Shown here in pieces: positions 17,325 through 44,453 of a stretch of DNA of 44,453 nt; positions within the stretch are counted from its first letter, which is position 1, and each line of letters opens with the position of its first letter. Made by a program: the position numbers and the translations under genes. This DNA comes from Methanothrix sp. (GTDB taxonomy: Archaea > Halobacteriota > Methanosarcinia > Methanotrichales > Methanotrichaceae). The notes beneath the pieces were generated by a model. The model was not told where the DNA came from. It saw only the letters and a program-made list of their open reading frames with translations, and ran no database searches. The DNA lies in NCBI GenBank assembly GCA_037128175.1, contig JBAXWY010000022.1, positions 1-44,453 on the forward strand. The letters run 5' to 3'.

Positions 17325-18071
17325 TTAGCCAAATCTTCCGGTGATATAATCTTCCGTGCTCTTTATCGTCGGCATCTCAAAGATGCGTTTTGTCTTTCCC
17401 ACCTCGATCAGCTCGCCTAGCAAGAAGAAGGCGGTGCAGTCGGATATCCTGGCCGCTTGCTGCATGTTATGGGTCACAATCACCTGGGTATAGTTGTCCT
17501 TTAAGGTCTCCATGAGGCTCTCGATCTTGCCGGTGGAGATGGGATCGAGAGCGCTGCATGGTTCGTCAAATAAGATAACATCGGGCTTCATGGCCAGCGT
17601 TCTGGCGATGCACAGCCTCTGCTGCTGGCCGCCGGATAGACCCAAGGCCGGCTGGTCCAGCCTCTCGCAAACTTCTCCCCAGAGGGCGGCATCCAATAGA
17701 CTGCGCTCTACAACTTTATCGACATTTTTCAGCCCGTGAATTCTGGGGCCATAGGCAATGTTGTCGTAAATGGACATGGGGAAGGGGTTAGGCTTTTGAA
17801 ATACCATGCCTATCCGTTTGCGCAGTTCCACGACATCGACATCTTTTCCATAAATATCGATATCATCATAGAGGACCTGGCCTTCAATGCGAATCTTGGT
17901 TACGAGATCGTTCATCCGGTTCAGACAGCGGATAAAAGTGGACTTGCCGCAGCCGGATGGCCCGATGAGCGCTGTAATCTTTTTCTCAGGAATATCCAGG
18001 CTTATGTCCTTGAGAGCTTGCTTTTCTCCATACCAGAGATTTAGATTTTTCGAGATGATCTTCGTTGTCAC
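17325..18071 (-). CDS. pstB: Phosphate ABC transporter ATP-binding subunit
   Basis: [46 protein letters not shown]. Confidence 0.96.
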
Positions 18072-27676: not shown

Positions 27677-30600
27677 ATGAAAGAACCGAATAGCAAGTGC
27701 AAGAATAATACTAGATTCAAAGGTAAGTACAGAGACGTATTTCTCGTCTTTGCAGTATTAATGATAACGGGAGTGCTATTGGCCGTATCGGCCTATGCAC
27801 AATTCGATCCGCAGCTGCCGGGAGATTCCGGACCGGTGGATTTCACGACTCCGGACATCATGGGCACAGCCAGTTCCAACCAGCCGCCCATGCTCGCCGC
27901 TCTTGAGAGTGATAAATCCAGTCCTCAGGAAGCAGGCAGCTCCATAAAATGGACGGCCAAAGCAGAAGACCCGGAAAATGATCCCATTTCCTTCATATTC
28001 CGGCTAAAAGGGCCTTCTACTGGTGACGTATGGAAGCCGGTAAACCAAGACCCTTCCGAAAAGACCTGGAAATGGGACACCAATTCTGAAGATGCTGGAA
28101 ATTACCAGATAAGCGTCTCGGTTAGGGATGAAACGCATGCTGGTCCCCAATTTACACCGGACGAGAAGATAGTTGACTTTAAATTGACTGCCCCAACGGC
28201 ACCTGCAGAAGTTCAGGTGCAGCCTGCAGTTGAGCCTTTGCCAGTTGTGACGGCCCAGGAGCAAACATATGTGCCGCCCGTGCAGGAGCAGCAGCCTTCT
28301 CAGATGCAACCCGTGGCGCAGCCACAGGAAGTAACCCCTGCCAATTTGGCACCTGTCATGACCAGCTTGACACCGGTTCCAGCCAGCCCCCAGGAAGCCG
28401 GAGCTGTGGTGAACTGGGAAGCAATAGCCAGTGACCAGGAAAGCGATAGTCTGCAGTTCCAGTTCCTGCTGGACGGTTCGCCGATGACCGATTGGCAAGA
28501 TCAGAATCAATGGACCTGGACAACCTCCGTCAATGAAATCGGTGTCCACAGTATTGAGGCAATAGTCCGGGATGGATCACATAATATGGAGGGCGATTCG
28601 TCCAAAAAGGCAAAATTTACCATAAATAAACCCAATGAAAAGCCAGTCATTTCCGAATTGGCAGCAGATAAGAACAGCCCCCAGGAGACGGGAAGCATTG
28701 TAACCTGGACGGCCAAAGCGTCTGACCCCGAGAAAAATCCAATTTTATATAGGTTCTTTTTAAACCAACTTCCTACTACCGATTGGCAGTCCAGCAACAA
28801 GTGGGCCTGGACAGCAGCCGAGGGCGACGCCCAGATAGAGGTCCAGGTTAGAGACGGAAAGCATGCCGAGCAAGATGGGTTTGATGACAGCAAGAGCGCG
28901 ACGTTCGTCATATTGTCCCCCAACCAGAAACCTGCCATCATCAATTTCAGTCCTGACAAGCAGAGCCCCCAGGAGACCGGTTCTATTATCTCCTGGACTG
29001 TCGAATTCATGGACGCAGAGAGCGATCCTCTGCAATTCCAGTTCTCCTTAGATGGAACGGTAGTGCAGGATTGGTCGGAAAGCCCCGTCTGGATCTGGAC
29101 TGCGACCAAAGAGCAGATCGGGCAGCATATAATCGAGGCCAAGGTCAAGGACAATAAGCACAATCCTGATGGAGACAGCTCTAAGACAACCGATTTCGTC
29201 ATAAGTGCTCCGCCAAACAATCCACCTGTTGTTACCGATCTGGTCTCAGACCTGGCCAGCCCGCAGGTAGCCGGAGCCGCAGTAACCTTTACTGCAACGG
29301 CTTCAGACACCGAGACCGATCCCGTGCAGTACATGTTCTTACTGGATGGCCAGCCCAAGACCAGCTGGACGGAAAATCCGAGCTGGACCTGGACTACATC
29401 CGCAGAGGACATCGGATCTCACAGTATCGAGGCGAAGTCCAAGGACAATAAGCACAATCCTGACGGAGACAGCTCTAAGGCGATCGATTTTGCCATAAGT
29501 GCTCCGCCAAACAATCCACCCGTGCTTATCGATCTGGCCTCAGACCTGGCCAGCCCGCAGGTAGCCGGAGCCGCAGTAACCTTTACTGCAACGGCTTCAG
29601 ACACCGAGACCGATCCCGTGCAGTACATGTTCTTACTGGATGGCCAGCCCAAGACCAGCTGGACGGAAAATCCGAGCTGGACCTGGACTACATCCGCAGA
29701 GGACATCGGATCTCACAGTATCGAGGCGAAGTCCAAGGACAATAAGCACAATCCTGACGGAGACAGCTCTAAGGCGATCGATTTCGCCATAAGTGCTCCG
29801 CCAAACAATCCACCCGTGCTTACCGATCTGGCCTCAGACCTGGTCAGCCCACAACTATTGGGAACGACAGTCACCTGGACGGCCCAGGCCAGCGATCCGG
29901 AATCCAATCCAATCAGTTATCGCTTCCTGGTCAACGGCACGCCTGCCACCGACTGGCAACTAGAGAATATATTGACCTGGACAGCCATAGAGCCCGGCAC
30001 CAGCCAGATCTCTGTGCAGGTTAAAGACAGCCTGCATGAGGGAGCGCAAGGCGTTGCCGGCAATATTAGCCGCGAGTTTTCCATAATTGCTCCTGCGCCT
30101 GAAACCAAGCCCGTGCAAGAGCCTGTGCAAACCGAGGTTGTGCCGGCAGAAGTCGTACCGGCCAAGCTCAATGAATCGCCGGTGATTAGTGGCTTGACCA
30201 CGGAAAGCGTCAGCCCACAACTATTGGGAACAACAGTCACCTGGACGGCCCAGGCCAGCGATCCGGAATCCGATCCAATCAGCTATCGCTTCCTGGTCAA
30301 CGGCACGCCTGCCACCGACTGGCAACCAGAAAACCTGTGGACCTGGACGGCCATGCTGCCAGGCACCAGCCAGATCTCTGTGCAGGTTAAGGACAGCCTG
30401 CATGAGGGAGCGCAAGGCGTTGCCGGCAATATTAGCCGCGAGTTTTCCATAATTGCTCCTGCGCCTGAAACCAAGCCCGTGCAAGAGCCTGTGCAAACCG
30501 AGGTTGTGCCGGCAGAAGTCGTACCGGCCAAGCTCAATGAATCGCCGGTGATTAGTGGCTTGACCACGGAAAGCGTCAGCCCACAACTATTGGGAACAAC

Positions 30601-33600
30601 AGTCACCTGGACGGCCCAGGCCAGCGATCCGGAATCCGATCCAATCAGCTATCGCTTCCTGGTCAACGGCACGCCTGCCACCGACTGGCAACCAGAAAAC
30701 CTGTGGACCTGGACGGCCATGCTGCCAGGCACCAGCCAGATCTCTGTGCAGGTTAAGGACAGCCTGCACGAGGGAGCAGAGGGTGAAGCCGGCAACATGA
30801 GCGCAGAGTTCACCATAAATGCTCCTGCGCCTGAAACCAAGCCCGTGCAAGAGCCTGTCACGGGCGAGAATGTACCTCCAGTGACTGAGAACATAACCAT
30901 ACCAGTAGCACCGGAAAATGTGACGCCGCAGCAGCCCGTCAATGAGACGGAAGCTGTGACGATTGCCCCGGAGACCGTTGTACCTCCTCTGGATGAGAAC
31001 ATAACCACACCCCTGGTACTGGAAAATGTGACGCCACAGCAGCCCGTCAATGAAACGAAGTCCACTGAGCCTGCGATTCCACCGGCAGAAAACCGGACAC
31101 CCGTCTTGAATTCTCTGAGCGCGGATGTCACCAGCCCCCAGATTCCGGGCACCACCATAACCTGGACTGCCAATGCCACTGATGTAGACCAAGATCCGTT
31201 GCTCTTCCGCTTCTTCAGAAGTGGACCGGCAACCAGCGGAGTCTGGCAGCCTGTGACGGAGTGGAGCGGTGCCAACACCTGGACCCAAACGACATCTTCC
31301 TCGGATGCAGGCGAAAATCAGGTCAAGGCCCAGGTTAGGGATGGAAAGCACGCATCTCCGGATAGCTTTGACAGCGAGCTGTCCGCATTCATGACTCTTC
31401 GTGAGCCTGCTCGGAACATATCCGGCACAGCTTATGATGATAAGGACGGCAACTCTCTCATAGATAGCGGCGAGGCCCTGTCCGGCTGGACAATCCGTCT
31501 TGCCGGGCCAGACGGCGAGATCAGCGCCTTAACTCGTGAGGACGGATCCTATCGTTTCGAGCAACTTAAGAAGGGAAGCTACACTGTTAGCGAGACACTG
31601 CCCTCCGGTTGGAAGGCTACCAATCCCGAGAGCGGATCATATAGCGTGGATCTGTCGGAGGGCGACGCCGCCGACAAGAACTTCGCCAATAAGCTGACAT
31701 CTTACAGCATATCCGGCATGAAGTATAACGACCTTAACGGCAATGGGGCCAACGACGGCGAGCCTGGAATGGAAGGTTGGACGATCCAGCTCTCCAAAGA
31801 GGGCAGCACTGTCAATAGCACCACGACCGGGAAGGATGGTTCCTATAAATTCGCGGACCTGATGCCAGGCAGCTACTCGGTAAAGGAAGTCGAGCAGTCC
31901 GGCTGGGCCAGGACAGCACCTCTTGAGGGATCATATTCGGTTATGCTTGCAGATGCCGATGTGACCGGTAAAGACTTTGGCAACCACGGATCGTGGTCTA
32001 TCTTTGGAGCCAATTTCAACGACCTGAATGGAAACGGAGTCAAGGATGGAAATGAGACCGCTCTTGTCGGCTGGAACATTCAGCTCGCCAAAGACGGCAA
32101 TATCATCAATGCCACTACCACTGGCCAGGACGGATCCTATGCCTTCAAGAACCTCGCTCCAGGCAAATACACTGTAAGCGAAGTCGCCCAGGAAGGCTGG
32201 ACTCAGACTCTGCCTCAGGGACCATATAGCATCGATCTATTGGATGCGGATGTCTCAGGAAAGGATTTCGGCAACAAGGGCAACCTATCCATCACGGGCA
32301 AAAAGTTCTATGATGCCAACGGCAATGGAGTGCAAGACGGGGACGAGCCTGGCCTTCCAGGACAGGAAGTCAAGCTGGTAGAGAACGGCAAAGAGCTCGC
32401 CAGCGTGACCACGGGCCAGGACGGCACCTATACCTTCAGCAACCTGGTGCCGGGAACCTACGAGGTGGATGACCCCATACTGGTTACCGTAACAACGCAG
32501 ATTCATGTAGTGGTGAACGTTCCGGCATTCAGCCCCAACATAATCTCTGGAATGAAATTCAACGATCTGAACGGCAATGGAATTAAGGACGCTGGAGAAC
32601 TGGGCGTTCCCAATTGGGGAATCGATCTGGTATATGTGGTGCCTGGCCCCGATATCTTGCTGGCACAGGTCAATACAGATGCCAACGGAGCCTACAAGTT
32701 CATCAACATCCCGCCTGGCAACTACGAGATCAAGGAGCTGGCCAGACAGGGCTGGACTGCAACCACACCAACGGTACGCGCCGTTCATATCCCGGGCAGC
32801 TCCAGCAACCAAAACTTCGGCAACAAGCTGGCTACCTTGCCAACTTTGGGCTCGATCTTTGGCATGAAGTTCAATGACCTCAACGGAAATGGTGTTAAGG
32901 ATGGCGGCGACGCTGGGCTTCCTGGCTGGACCATCCAGTTAAAGAATGCCACAAGCCTGACCGTGATCAGTACCACAAACACCGGATCGGACGGCACCTA
33001 TGCCTTCCTGAACATCACTCCTGCAAACTACGTTGTGAGCGAGGTATCCCAATCCGGCTGGACGCAGACCAAGCCACCTGCGCCTGGTGCACAGGTTTAC
33101 TCCTTTGCTCTGGCCGCGGGAGAGAATAAGCAGGGAATCGACTTTGGCAACCGCAACAATAACCTGCTGCCTACCAATCCCACGCTGGTCCCGAATCTGG
33201 CCGGCCCACGGATGGTGGGCACGCCTGTAATCTGGACCGCTGGGGCCACTGATCCAGAAGGAGATACCCTGCAGTTCAGATTCTTCGTGCGCGGACCGGC
33301 GCCATCCCCTGCTGTGAGGGCCGACACCGGATACTCTACGAACAACGTTTGGACATGGAGCACCGTTGGGTATGCTCCTGGACCCTACCAGATTGAGGTC
33401 TGGATCAGAGACGGCAATCACGCCGGATCGGCAGGCTTCGACATCAAGAAGACGGTTTCCTTCACACTTACCAGCGCCAACCTGCCGCCACGAGTCAACA
33501 TGCTGTTCTCCGATCGGCCGGCACCCCAGTTTATGGGAAGCTGGATCAAGTGGACCGCAGTTGCATCCGATCCGGAAGGTGCTCCCCTGCAGTACAAGTT

Positions 33601-35098
33601 CTATCTGCGCGGTCCTTCAACTAACGGATTTTGGATGGACCAGACCGGCTGGGGAAATAACAACCGCTGGATCTGGAGAACCACTCCCTTTGATGTCGGC
33701 TACAGCGAGGTGCTGGTGGCAGTTAGAGACGGCAGTCATGCCGGGCCGGGTGGATCAGACGACTATGAAATAGCCGCCTTCTCTATCATCAACCAGAACC
33801 TTCCGCCGGTTATCACTGGTCTGGTCAGCAATGTGTTTAGCCCGCAGCCCATAGGAGCCACAGTGATGTGGAGGGCATCCGCCATGGATCCGGAAGGAAA
33901 TCCTGTGTTCTACAGGTACTGGCTAAAGGGAGCCGCTACCGGAGGATCCTGGAGGATTGCGCGGGATTGGTCGACCGACCCGACCTTCGTATGGCCCACC
34001 TCGCCCGCGGACGCAGGAACAAGCGAGATTCAATTGCAAGTGCGCGATGGCCTGCACTCCAGCCCGTCTGGATGGGATGACGATGCAGGGGCCCTGTTCA
34101 CCGTGCTGCGGCAAAACCTGCCGCCCACTCTCGTCTCCCTGAAGCCGGACAAGCCCAGCTCACAAGTTGCCGGCACACCCATAAAGTGGATGGCAATAGC
34201 CTCAGATCCAGATAGAGAGCCGGTATTCTACAAATTCTGGCTGAAGGGCCCATCGACCGGAGAAGCCTGGAAGGTCGTACAGGATTGGTCGACAAAGAAC
34301 CTGTGGACCTGGGCCAGTTTTGGCAGCGATCGCGGGGCTTATACCGTCTACGTCTACGCCCGGGACGGAAAGCACAATCCAGCAACCGGTTATGATAGCG
34401 CACTGGGTGCATCGTATCTGCTTACACCCAATCAGCTGCCCAAGCTGACGGCTTTGCTGCCCGACAAGCTCGGCCCACTGAGCGCAGGAAACCCAGTGAA
34501 ATGGACAGCAAAAGCGTCCGATGCCAACAAAGAACCTATCCTTTATCGGTTTTGGTTGAAGGGCCCCTCCACAGGCAACGCCTGGAAGGTGGTGGCGGAT
34601 TGGTCAATAAACAACCAGTGGACCTGGACCAATTCCGGCAGCGATAGCGGAGAATATACCGTCTATGTCTATGTTCGGGACGGAAAGCATAGTCCAGCAA
34701 CCGGTTACGATAGCGCACTGGGTGCATCGTATCTGCTTACGCCCAATGAGCCGCCCAAGCTGACGGCTCTTCTGCCCAACAAGAAAAATCCGCAGAGCGC
34801 AGGAACGATCGTGAAATGGACGGCAACCGCCACTGATATCAATAAAGATCCGATACTCTACCGGTTCTGGCTGAATGGCCCATCCACAGGCAATGCCTGG
34901 AAGATGGTATCGGATTGGTCGATAAAGAACCAGTGGACCTGGACCAATGCACCAACCGATGGCGGCAACTACAGAATTTTTGTCTATGCCAGGGATGGCA
35001 AGCACGCCCCGGCAACCGGCTATGACAGCGCGGTAGGTCAGGACTATGCACTGCTAAATCGGGTAGTGAGCCAAAAGGTGGTTGTTGTAAAAAGATAG
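27677..35098 (+). CDS. Giant secreted/surface protein with tandem Ig-like repeats and SdrD-B/CnaB-like domains
   Basis: Signal peptide; repeated N.PP...SPQ..G..V.WTA.A.DPE...Y.F...DW....WTW...V.V.DG.H modules; central DxNGNGxxD...GW.I.L...DGSY.F..L.PG.Y.V.E modules. Confidence 0.9.
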   Translation: MKEPNSKCKNNTRFKGKYRDVFLVFAVLMITGVLLAVSAYAQFDPQLPGDSGPVDFTTPDIMGTASSNQPPMLAALESDKSSPQEAGSSIKWTAKAEDPENDPISFIFRLKGPSTGDVWKPVNQDPSEKTWKWDTNSEDAGNYQISVSVRDETHAGPQFTPDEKIVDFKLTAPTAPAEVQVQPAVEPLPVVTAQEQTYVPPVQEQQPSQMQPVAQPQEVTPANLAPVMTSLTPVPASPQEAGAVVNWEAIASDQESDSLQFQFLLDGSPMTDWQDQNQWTWTTSVNEIGVHSIEAIVRDGSHNMEGDSSKKAKFTINKPNEKPVISELAADKNSPQETGSIVTWTAKASDPEKNPILYRFFLNQLPTTDWQSSNKWAWTAAEGDAQIEVQVRDGKHAEQDGFDDSKSATFVILSPNQKPAIINFSPDKQSPQETGSIISWTVEFMDAESDPLQFQFSLDGTVVQDWSESPVWIWTATKEQIGQHIIEAKVKDNKHNPDGDSSKTTDFVISAPPNNPPVVTDLVSDLASPQVAGAAVTFTATASDTETDPVQYMFLLDGQPKTSWTENPSWTWTTSAEDIGSHSIEAKSKDNKHNPDGDSSKAIDFAISAPPNNPPVLIDLASDLASPQVAGAAVTFTATASDTETDPVQYMFLLDGQPKTSWTENPSWTWTTSAEDIGSHSIEAKSKDNKHNPDGDSSKAIDFAISAPPNNPPVLTDLASDLVSPQLLGTTVTWTAQASDPESNPISYRFLVNGTPATDWQLENILTWTAIEPGTSQISVQVKDSLHEGAQGVAGNISREFSIIAPAPETKPVQEPVQTEVVPAEVVPAKLNESPVISGLTTESVSPQLLGTTVTWTAQASDPESDPISYRFLVNGTPATDWQPENLWTWTAMLPGTSQISVQVKDSLHEGAQGVAGNISREFSIIAPAPETKPVQEPVQTEVVPAEVVPAKLNESPVISGLTTESVSPQLLGTTVTWTAQASDPESDPISYRFLVNGTPATDWQPENLWTWTAMLPGTSQISVQVKDSLHEGAEGEAGNMSAEFTINAPAPETKPVQEPVTGENVPPVTENITIPVAPENVTPQQPVNETEAVTIAPETVVPPLDENITTPLVLENVTPQQPVNETKSTEPAIPPAENRTPVLNSLSADVTSPQIPGTTITWTANATDVDQDPLLFRFFRSGPATSGVWQPVTEWSGANTWTQTTSSSDAGENQVKAQVRDGKHASPDSFDSELSAFMTLREPARNISGTAYDDKDGNSLIDSGEALSGWTIRLAGPDGEISALTREDGSYRFEQLKKGSYTVSETLPSGWKATNPESGSYSVDLSEGDAADKNFANKLTSYSISGMKYNDLNGNGANDGEPGMEGWTIQLSKEGSTVNSTTTGKDGSYKFADLMPGSYSVKEVEQSGWARTAPLEGSYSVMLADADVTGKDFGNHGSWSIFGANFNDLNGNGVKDGNETALVGWNIQLAKDGNIINATTTGQDGSYAFKNLAPGKYTVSEVAQEGWTQTLPQGPYSIDLLDADVSGKDFGNKGNLSITGKKFYDANGNGVQDGDEPGLPGQEVKLVENGKELASVTTGQDGTYTFSNLVPGTYEVDDPILVTVTTQIHVVVNVPAFSPNIISGMKFNDLNGNGIKDAGELGVPNWGIDLVYVVPGPDILLAQVNTDANGAYKFINIPPGNYEIKELARQGWTATTPTVRAVHIPGSSSNQNFGNKLATLPTLGSIFGMKFNDLNGNGVKDGGDAGLPGWTIQLKNATSLTVISTTNTGSDGTYAFLNITPANYVVSEVSQSGWTQTKPPAPGAQVYSFALAAGENKQGIDFGNRNNNLLPTNPTLVPNLAGPRMVGTPVIWTAGATDPEGDTLQFRFFVRGPAPSPAVRADTGYSTNNVWTWSTVGYAPGPYQIEVWIRDGNHAGSAGFDIKKTVSFTLTSANLPPRVNMLFSDRPAPQFMGSWIKWTAVASDPEGAPLQYKFYLRGPSTNGFWMDQTGWGNNNRWIWRTTPFDVGYSEVLVAVRDGSHAGPGGSDDYEIAAFSIINQNLPPVITGLVSNVFSPQPIGATVMWRASAMDPEGNPVFYRYWLKGAATGGSWRIARDWSTDPTFVWPTSPADAGTSEIQLQVRDGLHSSPSGWDDDAGALFTVLRQNLPPTLVSLKPDKPSSQVAGTPIKWMAIASDPDREPVFYKFWLKGPSTGEAWKVVQDWSTKNLWTWASFGSDRGAYTVYVYARDGKHNPATGYDSALGASYLLTPNQLPKLTALLPDKLGPLSAGNPVKWTAKASDANKEPILYRFWLKGPSTGNAWKVVADWSINNQWTWTNSGSDSGEYTVYVYVRDGKHSPATGYDSALGASYLLTPNEPPKLTALLPNKKNPQSAGTIVKWTATATDINKDPILYRFWLNGPSTGNAWKMVSDWSIKNQWTWTNAPTDGGNYRIFVYARDGKHAPATGYDSAVGQDYALLNRVVSQKVVVVKR
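29147..29842 (+). repeat. Intragenic tandem repeat, 294-bp unit, about 2.4 copies, near-identical
   Basis: AAGGACAATAAGCACAATCCTGA at 29147, 29441 and 29735. Confidence 0.9.
29843..30858 (+). repeat. Intragenic tandem repeat, 366-bp unit, about 2.8 copies, near-identical
   Basis: GTCAGCCCACAACTATTGGG at 29843, 30209 and 30575. Confidence 0.9.
34116..35050 (+). repeat. Intragenic tandem repeat, 315-bp unit, about 3 diverged copies
   Basis: GCACTGGGTGCATCGTATCTGCTTAC recurs 315 bp apart; FWLKGPSTG.AWK.V.DWS...YARDGKH.PATGYDSA occurs three times. Confidence 0.8.
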
Positions 35099-42583: not shown

Positions 42584-42657
42584 GGGCCCGTGGTCTAGCT
42601 GGTTATGACGTCGCCTTGACATGGCGGAGGTCATGCGTTCGAATCGCGTCGGGCCCA
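42584..42657 (+). tRNA. tRNA-Val(GAC)
   Basis: GGGCCCGTGGTCTAGCTGGTTATGACGTCGCCTT-GAC-ATGGCGGAGGTCATGCGTTCGAATCGCGTCGGGCCCA. Confidence 0.96.
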
Positions 42658-42662
42658 CTTGA

Positions 42663-42735
<73 letters not shown>

Positions 42736-43249
42736 TATAATTACTAAGTAATTCGCCCCATTGATATCGATTTTTAGCGATTTTAGATCTTGTCTTGCAT
42801 CATCTCTCACAGGGTTATATATTTGCCTTTGCATCAAAGTTCATCGCGAAATTTCCCGATGGCGATCTTATCCAAGCCACGTGGGAATGATGAACGGTGG
42901 CGATCAGGGGACTGATGTGGATGGCCTCTATTCTCCCAAGGCCATTATCAGAGGCACTTACATGGAGATTAGAGCTTTTGAACTAGCGTATCATAGGGCG
43001 GCTAGAAGCTCTCCCTTGATGTTGGATAGTAGGATCGCGATGGAAGCTTAGAACTGCTTCCATTTAAATTCGCGAAGTGCTTTGCTTGCTCGATTTGCGG
43101 TTTCGTTTCTATTATAATAGCAGATAAATATTATTTCTCTGGCTGGATAGTTGTTCTCTCCAGACCGTTGCCAAAAGAAACGATCAGTTATATGGTATTT
43201 ACAAATGCCTTTATAGTAATATTGAGCAGAGCAAATATGGTGGAATAAG

Positions 43250-43426
43250 ATGAAAACAGAATGGAATAAACCACAGTTGGTTGTTGTGGCGCGCGGTTCC
43301 AGAGAAGAAAACGTGTTATACGTCTGTAAGGTGAATAATTCTAATGGCCCGTCTTATTACGACACTTTATGTATGTTCCGTTACGGAAGCGGTTGTATAG
43401 AATGTTATTTCGATATGCCCAGTTAG
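43250..43426 (+). CDS. 58-aa Cys-rich peptide P1, putative RiPP precursor (not in ORF track)
   Basis: MKTEWNKPQLVVVARGSREENVLYVCKVNNSNGPSYYDTLCMFRYGSGCIECYFDMPS*; TATA TTTATAG at 43210-43216; RBS GGTGGA at 43239-43244; paralog at 43689-43862. Confidence 0.85.
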   Translation: MKTEWNKPQLVVVARGSREENVLYVCKVNNSNGPSYYDTLCMFRYGSGCIECYFDMPS

Positions 43427-43562
43427 CCGGAGGCGTAGGAGAAATTTGCCTATTTTTGGAGCCCTGGTCTCCAGCTCAAATAAAATGCATTGGAGCCGAT
43501 AGCTGCCCATTTTCCTACTAATAAGAAACTTTTATAAGTATGTAAGATACTGATCTGAGTAT

Positions 43563-43652
43563 ATGCAAGAAAAGAGAAACAGAGATCAGATCAGGGCTCA
43601 AATTCTTGCCTTATGTGAAAGCGAACTTTCGTTATGCTTCCAAAAAAGTTAA
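43563..43652 (+). pseudogene. Truncated remnant resembling the N-terminus of an archaeal winged-helix regulator
   Basis: MQEKRNRDQIRAQILALCES resembles the KRxRxxIxxxILxxC start of archaeal wHTH proteins; TATA TTTTATAA at 43530-43537. Confidence 0.4.
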
Positions 43653-43667
43653 AATTTAACTATTTTT
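43642..43667. terminator. Candidate bidirectional terminator
   Basis: AGTTAAA/TTTAACT inverted repeat flanked by an A-run and a T-run, between convergent units. Confidence 0.45.
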
Positions 43668-43688
43668 AGAGGCCTGGTCTTGGCGGGG

Positions 43689-43862
43689 CTAGGAGAGAAT
43701 AAATGCAGCACATTGATGACAGGCCCCATTATCATATTGATCGCATATTCCAAAATAAGGATATGGGCCTGTGGGCTTGTCATACTTGCACGCGCTAAGC
43801 ACTCTTTCCTCGGTCGAACCTCTCACAAGTACGATCAATTCAGGTTTTGTCCATGATTTCAT
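43689..43862 (-). CDS. 57-aa Cys-rich peptide P2, putative RiPP precursor (not in ORF track)
   Basis: MKSWTKPELIVLVRGSTEERVLSACKYDKPTGPYPYFGICDQYDNGACHQCAAFILS*; RBS GAGGT upstream; paralog of P1. Confidence 0.85.
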   Translation of the reverse strand: MKSWTKPELIVLVRGSTEERVLSACKYDKPTGPYPYFGICDQYDNGACHQCAAFILS

Positions 43863-43925
43863 AATATACTACCTCTTATGAAAGATCTCATGCGATTCCT
43901 CCTATAATGAGTTGTTTATCGTTGG

Positions 43926-44006
43926 TTATGGCTCGGAGGTAGCGCCAGCTACCAGGGCAATCAGGAGCATCATGGTCAGCATTAAGAAGGCTTTAGTCAG
44001 TCTCAT
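43926..44006 (-). pseudogene. Signal-peptide-only ORF (truncated secreted-protein gene?)
   Basis: MRLTKAFLMLTMMLLIALVAGATSEP*: basic n-region, hydrophobic h-region, AGA cleavage motif, then stop. Confidence 0.45.
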
Positions 44007-44109
44007 GGTTTCATTCCTATCATTGTATGTTATTCAAGATTTCCATTTATGGAAAAATGGTCTATTGATATTGTTTTCCGGCCAAACTACTTAACCTTAC
44101 ATGTAGAAT

Positions 44110-44337
44110 ATGTTCTTCATGGCAGGAGTCCTTGAGCAGCTAATCAGGCCACAGAAGAAGGCAATGAGTCAGAAGGCTATGGAGCTGGAAGCCGCGAGAG
44201 AGATCCTGGCCGAGGTCTTCAGGGTCAGGATCTCAGAGGTTGATGAAATGATACGGAACCGTTTTGAAGCTGCAGGGAAAGACGATATGGACCCTAAAGA
44301 AAGCGGTCCATGGCCACAGGAGTTCTGGCTGGAATAG
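44110..44337 (+). CDS. Hypothetical protein
   Basis: 75-aa ORF with protein-like composition (ELEAAREILAEVF...VDEMIRNR). Confidence 0.65.
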   Translation: MFFMAGVLEQLIRPQKKAMSQKAMELEAAREILAEVFRVRISEVDEMIRNRFEAAGKDDMDPKESGPWPQEFWLE

Positions 44338-44453
44338 AGCCTATTTCCAGAATTGCCACCATCCTTTTTTCTTGGCCTCTTCCTGACTTGGTGGTAGGGC
44401 TAGTACAGCTGGGCTTAAATAAGCCTAATTTTAGGCTGTAAGTGCCCTCCCTC

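Follow-up and report, generated by a model that had tools for sequence, protein, structure and literature searches.

Two short open reading frames (ORFs), P1 and P2, lie near the right-hand end of a 44,453-nt stretch of DNA from Methanothrix sp. and encode Cys-rich precursors of RiPPs (peptides that are made on ribosomes and modified after translation). This stretch, referred to as the window, is the entire contig C22 of assembly G000 (98 contigs, 2.96 Mb, 99.8% complete), and all coordinates given without a contig name are those of the whole window. A carbamoyl-phosphate synthase large-subunit gene precedes a tRNA-Val/tRNA-Phe pair, and GC content falls from ~0.55 to ~0.40 immediately 3' of tRNA-Phe. 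A first-pass annotation made from the letters of the window had described about 1.4 kb of AT-richer DNA after tRNA-Phe that holds P1, P2 and gene scraps, and the drop in GC content and P1 and P2, both intact, were found again here. The features with which the analysis is mainly concerned are as follows.

42584-42658, plus strand: tRNA-Val(GAC), called by ARAGORN
42663-42735, plus strand: tRNA-Phe(GAA), called by ARAGORN
42736-44399: low-GC patch of 1.66 kb, from tRNA-Phe to the boundary of an insertion sequence (IS), GC 0.424 compared to 0.508 for the genome
43250-43426, plus strand: P1, 58-aa precursor, an intact ORF with the leader MKTEWNKPQLVVVARGSREENVL, a core that starts from CK, four conserved Cys and a terminal Ser
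43689-43862, minus strand: P2, 57-aa precursor, an intact ORF with a core type that also occurs in metagenomic protein P0011 and in congener G032
43885-43906, minus strand: promoter-like motif TATAGGAGGAATCGCATGAGAT, 22 nt, located 23 nt upstream of the P2 start

The tRNA pair (42584-42735) is the last DNA in common with congeners. Homology to four of them stops at ~42740-42771, and in the genomes searched the patch at 42736-44399 is unique to the present species. Public assemblies made independently in two other studies span tRNA-Phe, P1 and P2 with no differences over 42764-44189; therefore, the order of these genes does not stem from misassembly.

A large precursor family that includes P1 and P2

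To place P1 and P2, a family profile was searched against 5.8 billion proteins, in which P1 scored an E value of 2.3e-23 and P2 of 9.6e-21. Because the profile scores them so strongly, P1 and P2 are not chance ORFs. Purine-rich stretches, GGTGGA and AGAGGT, stand 7-9 nt 5' of their respective starts. The family has a leader of the form MKKxWxKPxLVVLVRGxxEExVL and a core of the form CK..C..CxxC..S, in which Cys-Lys marks the border to the leader, three further Cys are conserved within a variable stretch and the last residue is Ser. In an alignment of 32 sequences, both P1 and P2 retain all nine invariant and all seven near-invariant columns. The leader motif W-x-K/R-P-x-L ... R-G ... E-E-x-V-L is kept in both (W5, P8, L10, R15, E20 and L23, with V12, G16 and V22 near-invariant), as are core residues C26, K27, C41, C49, C52 and S58. 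Both are true members of a family, so far uncharacterised, of radical S-adenosylmethionine enzyme (rSAM)-modified, Cys-rich RiPP precursors.

The family comprises 3342 representative clusters with a threshold of E<=1e-3 and 641 with one of E<=1e-10, and on metagenome contigs as many as seven of its precursors stand in one array. It has no counterpart among the Pfam and NCBIfam models, all named sources label its members hypothetical, and in the ESM Atlas it is represented by unnamed 'hypothetical protein' clusters only. Literature on Methanothrix RiPPs, radical SAM, SynChlorMet and the leader strings, supplementary files not covered, yielded no description of it. The WxKPxL-leader family is large yet named by no curated library, and is defined in the present analysis. 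One 44253-nt metagenome contig encodes a P2 protein identical to that of the window; it ends 491 bases past P2, with none of its sequence beyond the window end.

A profile built from look-alike ORFs picked up exactly eight family members genome-wide; besides P1 and P2, there are six on contig C4 (18-29 kb). The first-pass annotation had pictured the precursors as a dispersed substrate library. Counting and mapping the leader-motif ORFs did place their cognate enzyme locus, on C4, but the dispersal did not hold up, as six of the eight precursors lie within the C4 cluster and the other two lie together in one patch. A segment at C55:15244-15318 (profile E 0.28) was considered as a ninth, decayed precursor and rejected, since it has no W-KP-L leader and is another frame of a longer open frame.

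Selection on the precursors was then estimated. Among the eight paralogs the leader has a mean proportion of non-synonymous differences (pN) of 0.24 and a mean proportion of synonymous differences (pS) of 0.78, with synonymous sites saturated. Comparison of P2 with its ortholog in G032 gave a ratio of non-synonymous to synonymous rates (dN/dS) of ~0.34 (14 synonymous changes at 35.5 sites and 23 non-synonymous at 135.5), and the flanks of these two genes are unrelated. P2 and P0011 differ by four changes among 31 core residues versus five among 26 leader residues, as counted by eye. The low pN at saturated synonymous sites indicates strong purifying selection on the leaders, and P1 and P2 are read as selectively maintained genes.

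The enzyme set on contig C4 and proposed maturation in trans

On the minus strand of C4, the six other precursors are interleaved with enzyme genes. The cluster contains the following.

C4, minus strand: three paralogous rSAM enzymes, rSAM400, rSAM663 and rSAM388 (400, 663 and 388 aa), from domain and family scans
C4, minus strand: PqqD1, 100 aa (PF05402, 53 bits)
C4, minus strand: S24-type peptidase fused to GNAT, from domain and family scans
C4, minus strand: FAD-dependent (geranylgeranyl-reductase-like) oxidoreductase, from domain and family scans
C4, minus strand: 361-aa protein, function unassigned, from the gene content of the cluster
C4, facing the minus-strand operon: ABC exporter gene, from the gene content of the cluster

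The three rSAM enzymes carry CxxxCxxC at residues 39, 28 and 37, respectively, together with a C-terminal Cx2Cx5Cx2C, and the SPASM domain (PF13186) scores above its cut-off in one of them and slightly below it in a second. The class-level features of rSAM/SPASM RiPP systems that depend on a RiPP recognition element (RRE) are thus present, namely CxxxCxxC, auxiliary Cys and a PqqD-like RRE. The C4 rSAMs fall well under the cut-offs of all curated maturase families: the C4 enzymes score 38-65 bits against AlbA (cut-off 850), 72-85 against StsB (625), 41.8 against PapB (340) and 42 against SkfB (300), and over the AlbA, PapB, StsB and ScmE models the range is 38-92 bits with cut-offs of 340-850.

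Six bacterial precursor loci, from three Desulfobacterota metagenome-assembled genomes, Saganbacteria, WOR-1 and Aminicenantes, were compared with C4. In all six, a PqqD lies within 10 kb of the precursor, as do an S24-type peptidase and no fewer than two of the three rSAM types; five loci have all three, and an ABC exporter is usual. The bacterial orthologs of the C4 PqqD, S24 peptidase and rSAMs are 44-65% identical to their archaeal counterparts. Because it accompanies the precursors in every one of these loci, the PqqD/S24/rSAM set is the cognate machinery of the family.

Within assembly G000 this set is single-copy. None of rSAM400, rSAM663, rSAM388, PqqD1 and S24-GNAT is closely matched by a paralog (next-best matches are 24-40% identical), and PqqD domains occur at only four sites in the genome, three on C4 and one on C57. 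The maturase supposed by the first-pass annotation to lie elsewhere in the genome therefore corresponds to one RRE plus rSAM/SPASM locus, on C4, the sole copy in the assembly. What had been envisaged as one promiscuous maturase is instead a set made up of a discrete PqqD, three rSAM paralogs, an S24-type peptidase and an ABC exporter.

Co-location with PqqD, rSAMs, S24 peptidase and ABC exporter is present for the six C4 paralogs and absent for P1 and P2 in the window. The earlier statement that the window lacks radical SAM, PqqD and peptidase genes was borne out by a Pfam scan of its 39 non-overlapping ORFs of at least 80 aa, which matched none of the three. As for the ABC exporter, which had likewise gone unrecognised, the sole ABC ATPase of the window (17325-18071) is of the phosphate-transport type and adjoins PhoU genes. 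P1 and P2 thus have 43 kb on one side without a maturase gene. This absence carries little weight because the contig, which the window covers in full, breaks off in an insertion sequence.

From gene content we infer the following scheme, in which the expression of P1 and P2, the binding by the RRE, the chemistry and the processing in trans are all conjectural. The leader MKKxWxKPxLVVLVRGxxEExVL would be the handle for the discrete PqqD-type recognition protein, and as many as three rSAM/SPASM paralogs would act on the core CK..C..CxxC..S, most probably by introducing Cys-derived thioether cross-links. The S24/S26-type peptidase, here fused to GNAT, would then remove the leader, and the ABC transporter would export the product. 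If P1 and P2 are matured at all, the C4 enzymes would act on them in trans, as the sole enzyme set assembled is on C4. Maturation of P1 and P2 in trans by the C4 set is the best reading of the genes and their arrangement, and we give it an even chance of being right.

Two further observations bear on this reading. Firstly, the pattern of the promoter-like motif TATAGGAGGAATCGCATGAGAT occurs three times in the 2.96-Mb genome, upstream of P2 and of two C4 precursors, in a search whose pattern was derived from the very three sites that it finds. Secondly, the predicted complex of C4 PqqD1 with P1 scored 0.41 while the best of three controls scored 0.01. The mark applied to such predictions is reached by 116 of 157 solved complexes and by 2 of 215 mismatched pairs; those that reach it with a score of 0.60 or less are only 18 of the 157 solved complexes and both of the mismatched pairs that pass. 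The PqqD1-P1 runs had a contact agreement of at least 80% and a partner pLDDT (predicted local distance difference test) of at least 44. The prediction weakly favours recognition of the P1 leader by PqqD1. Solved complexes of PqqD-type RREs with leader peptides exist, and the pass may reflect mere likeness to them.

The C4 system was compared with known RiPP systems. Sactipeptide (subtilosin/AlbA) and ranthipeptide (PapB, SCIFF) systems are alike in that their short precursors combine a conserved leader with a core that contains Cys, their CxxxCxxC rSAMs carry auxiliary Cys clusters at the C terminus, and their gene clusters include a PqqD-type RRE as well as a peptidase and an ABC exporter. 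The system described here differs from them in that its RRE is a separate protein, each cluster has three rSAM paralogs, the S24-type peptidase is GNAT-fused in this genome and the precursors have no Pfam or NCBIfam model. Prochlorosins combine ProcA precursors, which have hypervariable cores and one conserved leader, with a single ProcM lanthipeptide synthetase, and some of their precursors are encoded at a distance from the enzyme gene and have to be processed in trans. In contrast to prochlorosins, rSAM and RRE take the place of LanM here, the leader has no Nif11/NHLP match and two of the eight precursors are outside the cluster. The best NCBIfam matches come from the SynChlorMet cassette (ScmD/ScmE/ScmF), with ScmE for one rSAM and ScmD for two neighbouring PqqD, at scores well below the cut-offs (ScmE 91.6 against 400, ScmD 28-51 against 100). 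A literature search under the name SynChlorMet found no paper. Another methanogen system is CrpA/CrpC of Methanococcus voltae, in which a SPASM rSAM is reported to form thioether (ranthionine) links on a nearby-encoded Cys-rich substrate (PMC13692751). That substrate is described as a protein, and the enzyme itself includes the RRE.

RiPPs that depend on rSAM and RRE and have some out-of-cluster precursors are a known kind, to which P1 and P2 add. To our knowledge, hardly any ribosomal peptide natural products have been described from methanogens. A large precursor family and its conserved enzyme set are now defined, and the set is seen in a member of the Methanotrichaceae, a family of methane producers of environmental importance, as well as in several phyla of anaerobic bacteria. 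P1 and P2 offer a simple test of whether substrates with genes elsewhere are handled by one enzyme set, and genome mining limited to enzyme neighbourhoods would miss such precursors.

The genome contains further loci of a related kind. The plus-strand half of the C4 region (C4:29275-36852) is a separate module with an ABC exporter, NTP_transf_5, two PqqD and three rSAM/SPASM genes, and is paralogous to a cluster on C57/C58 (ABC 60%, rSAM 41% identity). The latter (C57:1-6000 and C58:1-2000) is a second, different RiPP cluster with a precursor candidate MNYEKPELLDL..., a 294-aa protein, an S24/S26-like protein, PqqD, rSAMs, an ABC exporter and NTP_transf_5. A 159-aa HTH_32/HTH_29 transposase-like ORF lies between two precursors inside the C4 cluster (C4:18619-19098).

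A truncated gene in the patch and orphan precursors in relatives

Between and around P1 and P2 the patch holds repeats and the remnant of a gene.

43026-43184: short dispersed repeat of 159 nt, 5' of P1, with copies on C23, C83, C28 and C25 at 76-93% identity (blastn against the genome)
43442-43470 and 43652-43680, plus strand: 29-nt direct repeat, 86% alike, flanking the remnant (repeat search)
43563-43652, plus strand: winged-helix (wHTH) remnant of 29 aa, matching residues 1-21/23 only of 83-87-aa congener ORFs

A genus-wide six-frame search aligned the 29-aa remnant to the 83-87-aa ORFs of congeners G051 and G011 at 57-67% identity, after which it stops. Since the match is limited to the first 21-23 residues of the congener ORFs, 43563-43652 is a truncated gene. 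The 'wHTH start' among the gene scraps of the first-pass annotation is therefore upheld as a truncation, with the winged-helix label of the congener ORFs presumed from sequence type. The 29-nt direct repeat around this gene lies between the 3' ends of P1 and P2 and may be a recombination scar.

The first-pass annotation had called this region a tRNA-Phe-adjacent islet. Four congeners share the order carB-tRNA-Val-tRNA-Phe, and what follows tRNA-Phe differs in every one. A search of the assembly for repeats of tRNA-Phe with a length of at least 15 nt gave none, and no integrase family matched among the scanned window ORFs, the far border lying past the contig end. Deviant GC (0.42 vs 0.51) and absence at the same tRNA in relatives were thus observed, and an integrase or direct repeat was not. 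Comparison of the flank across congeners showed that it varies and did not support an integrated island; the tRNA-Phe flank is a plastic region rather than a demonstrable island.

Precursors of the family are patchily distributed among relatives, occurring in 6 of 104 other species genomes of the archaeal family, including 2 of 58 in the genus; an earlier sample of the genus had them in 0 of 18. P0035, labelled Methanotrichaceae by its source, is identical to a precursor of G054, a genome of the same family. Precursors apart from clusters recur in three of these genomes. G057 has two clusters and a lone precursor on a third contig (C33), and G096 has a cluster 82-90% identical to that of C4 and a lone precursor on the 9.7-kb contig C232. 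The closed genome of G032, which belongs to the same genus, has a single intact P2 ortholog, 68% identical (C1:1126648-1126815). It stands 90 bp from tRNA-Asp in a 420-bp gap between this tRNA and a 440-aa gene that looks peptidase-like by eye, and in its leader the near-invariant RG is replaced by RQ. The truncated neighbour gene and the recurrence of orphans are in line with the first-pass reading; the orphans of G057 and G096, genomes that also have a cluster elsewhere, count in favour of maturation in trans.

Several results weigh against maturation of P1 and P2 in trans by the C4 set. G032 gave no match to the PqqD1 family (E<=1e-5) or the rSAM388 family (E<=1e-30). A lone ortholog without found enzymes implies that an orphan can persist without machinery, which weakens the argument that P1 and P2 were retained because they are matured in trans, and it is mainly because of G032 that we do not rate this reading above even. 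P1 and P2 differ from the C4 precursors at pS 0.57-1.0; therefore, they are not recent copies of them. The GC contents of P1 and P2 (0.41 and 0.44) are below those of most C4 precursors, and the two genes may have arrived with another cluster that has since been lost. The complex prediction adds limited weight. The only RNA-library contig on the patch (208 nt, from two metatranscriptome runs) covers 43808-44015 with five differences and may be DNA carry-over, and the other metatranscriptome contigs cover the tRNAs only. Finally, the patch ends on the right at an IS for which the assembly has seven ends of one type and six of the other.

The main alternative is that P1 and P2 are unexpressed, unprocessed relics. 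They would be all that is still intact of another cluster or mobile element of foreign origin, which IS activity and recombination disrupted beside tRNA-Phe, and they would not yet have decayed. The low GC of 0.42, the truncated neighbour gene, the dispersed repeats and the IS630-type insertion at the patch edge all fit such a history, as do the near-saturated synonymous divergence from the C4 precursors and the lone P2 ortholog of G032, where cognate enzymes were not found. The same IS630-type element also split an rSAM gene of the C57/C58 RiPP cluster, which points to IS activity damaging such loci in this genome. Against this, both ORFs are intact, with ribosome-binding-like motifs and all family-invariant residues; P2 and its G032 ortholog show the low dN/dS given above though their flanks are dissimilar; the P2 core is about as conserved as the leader in P0011; and P2 has an upstream motif in common with C4 precursors. 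We consider the relic explanation unlikely, although it is the most serious competitor of maturation in trans.

The two P2 locations raise another alternative, that a P2-type peptide works without a dedicated rSAM set, either unmodified or through other enzymes, and that its gene moves alone and tends to land beside tRNAs. P2 lies beside tRNA-Phe here and its ortholog beside tRNA-Asp in G032, the flanks are unrelated while the coding sequence is under purifying selection, and G032 yielded none of the cognate enzymes. These are only two genomic examples, and no mobility gene or repeat flanks the ORF. The full leader of an RRE-dependent family is kept, which would be pointless without the machinery, and the G032 copy has lost the near-invariant Gly of RG, as expected for early decay. 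This explanation is improbable. Equally doubtful, in our estimate, is a variant in which P2-type genes would be self-contained mobile precursor cassettes, gene-sized units of conserved leader and conserved core that insert beside tRNAs and use any resident maturase set recognising the shared leader. If it were true, the RiPP repertoire could widen, or outlive its cluster, via horizontally moving orphan substrates rather than whole clusters.

The contig end and neighbouring features

To the right of P2, the window contains four further features.

43926-44006, minus strand: 26-aa hydrophobic mini-ORF, upstream of P2 and co-oriented with it (ORF call)
44023-44337, plus strand: member of a multi-copy 75-aa ORF family (ORF 44110/44119-44337) with a conserved upstream segment (genome paralogs)
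44341-44403, minus strand: 3' end of a small ORF (...GWWQFWK), the upstream part of which is lost at the IS boundary (blastx against paralogs)
44400-44453: last 54 nt of an IS630-family element with a CTAG target, at the contig end and identical in seven contig ends

To identify the element, the contig ends were compared. They are of two types, seven 'A' ends with the 54-nt repeat and six 'B' ends that start with the same 16 bases. Both types begin CTAGTACAGCTGGGCT, and all 13 abut CTAG; IS630 elements follow a CTAG/TA target rule. In congener G005, copies of the element contain ORFs with HTH_32 (1.1e-10) and DDE_3 (8.9e-22); therefore, the contig-end repeat is an IS630-type IS whose body is missing from the assembly. 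The 159-aa transposase-like ORF inside the C4 cluster has the size and domain type of the first ORF of this element in G005.

Each of the seven 'A' flanks was joined to each of the six 'B' flanks without the IS, and open frames were sought across the junction. Convincing junctions were found only for C57_L+C58_L (116/257 codons) and C36_L+C5_L (356/981 codons). The former restores the first rSAM gene of the C57/C58 cluster, which is split so that the N-terminal C57 part corresponds to paralog residues 19-133 and the C58 part, with SPASM, to residues 133-377. The latter restores a large ORF, interrupted by the same element (356 codons on C36 and 981 codons on C5), of a BREX locus with PglZ and BrxL that lies at C5:1-7000 and the C36 left end. 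For the right end of the window, no partner was found among the six 'B' flanks: at most 35 codons stayed open, and the cut ...WWQFWK ORF matched none. A 4116-nt public contig from another sample runs 2384 nt past 44334.

These ends bear on the possibility that P1 and P2 belong to an ordinary cluster, with maturase genes just past 44453 and parted from them only by the IS630-type insertion. The window does stop at a contig end within a repeat, and with seven 'A' and six 'B' ends one 'B' flank is absent. Against this, the family enzyme set is single-copy in a 99.8%-complete assembly, and the available flanks are otherwise accounted for, C58_L completing the split C57 rSAM, C5_L completing the BREX ORF and the remaining four carrying core or unrelated genes. 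Among them, the B12-rSAM at C27_L is 85-93% identical in five of five congeners that have no cluster. In addition, the DNA adjoining the IS is a multi-copy small-ORF module, not cluster genes. We regard an ordinary cluster as very unlikely, the least probable of the explanations considered, and maturation in trans by the C4 set keeps its place as the preferred one.

The 75-aa ORF family has paralogs on C23, C53, C28, C10, C24, C49 and C29 and no Pfam match. The module at 44023-44403 consists of a 72-75-aa ORF (MAGVLEQLIRPQK...EFWLE) that is often convergent with a small ORF ending WWQFWK, and its C23 copies lie within ~2 kb of a 403-aa ORF that is transposase-like by eye. The 26-aa mini-ORF, termed a signal-peptide stub in the first-pass annotation, does exist as a hydrophobic ORF, and a search of its own genome found no homolog. 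The left contig end (1-55) is also a repeat, common to 11 contig ends and belonging to a different element from that at the right end. Elsewhere in the window, a 2473-aa ORF at 27677-35098 with many SdrD_B, Big_9 and carboxypeptidase-regulatory-like repeats probably encodes a surface protein.

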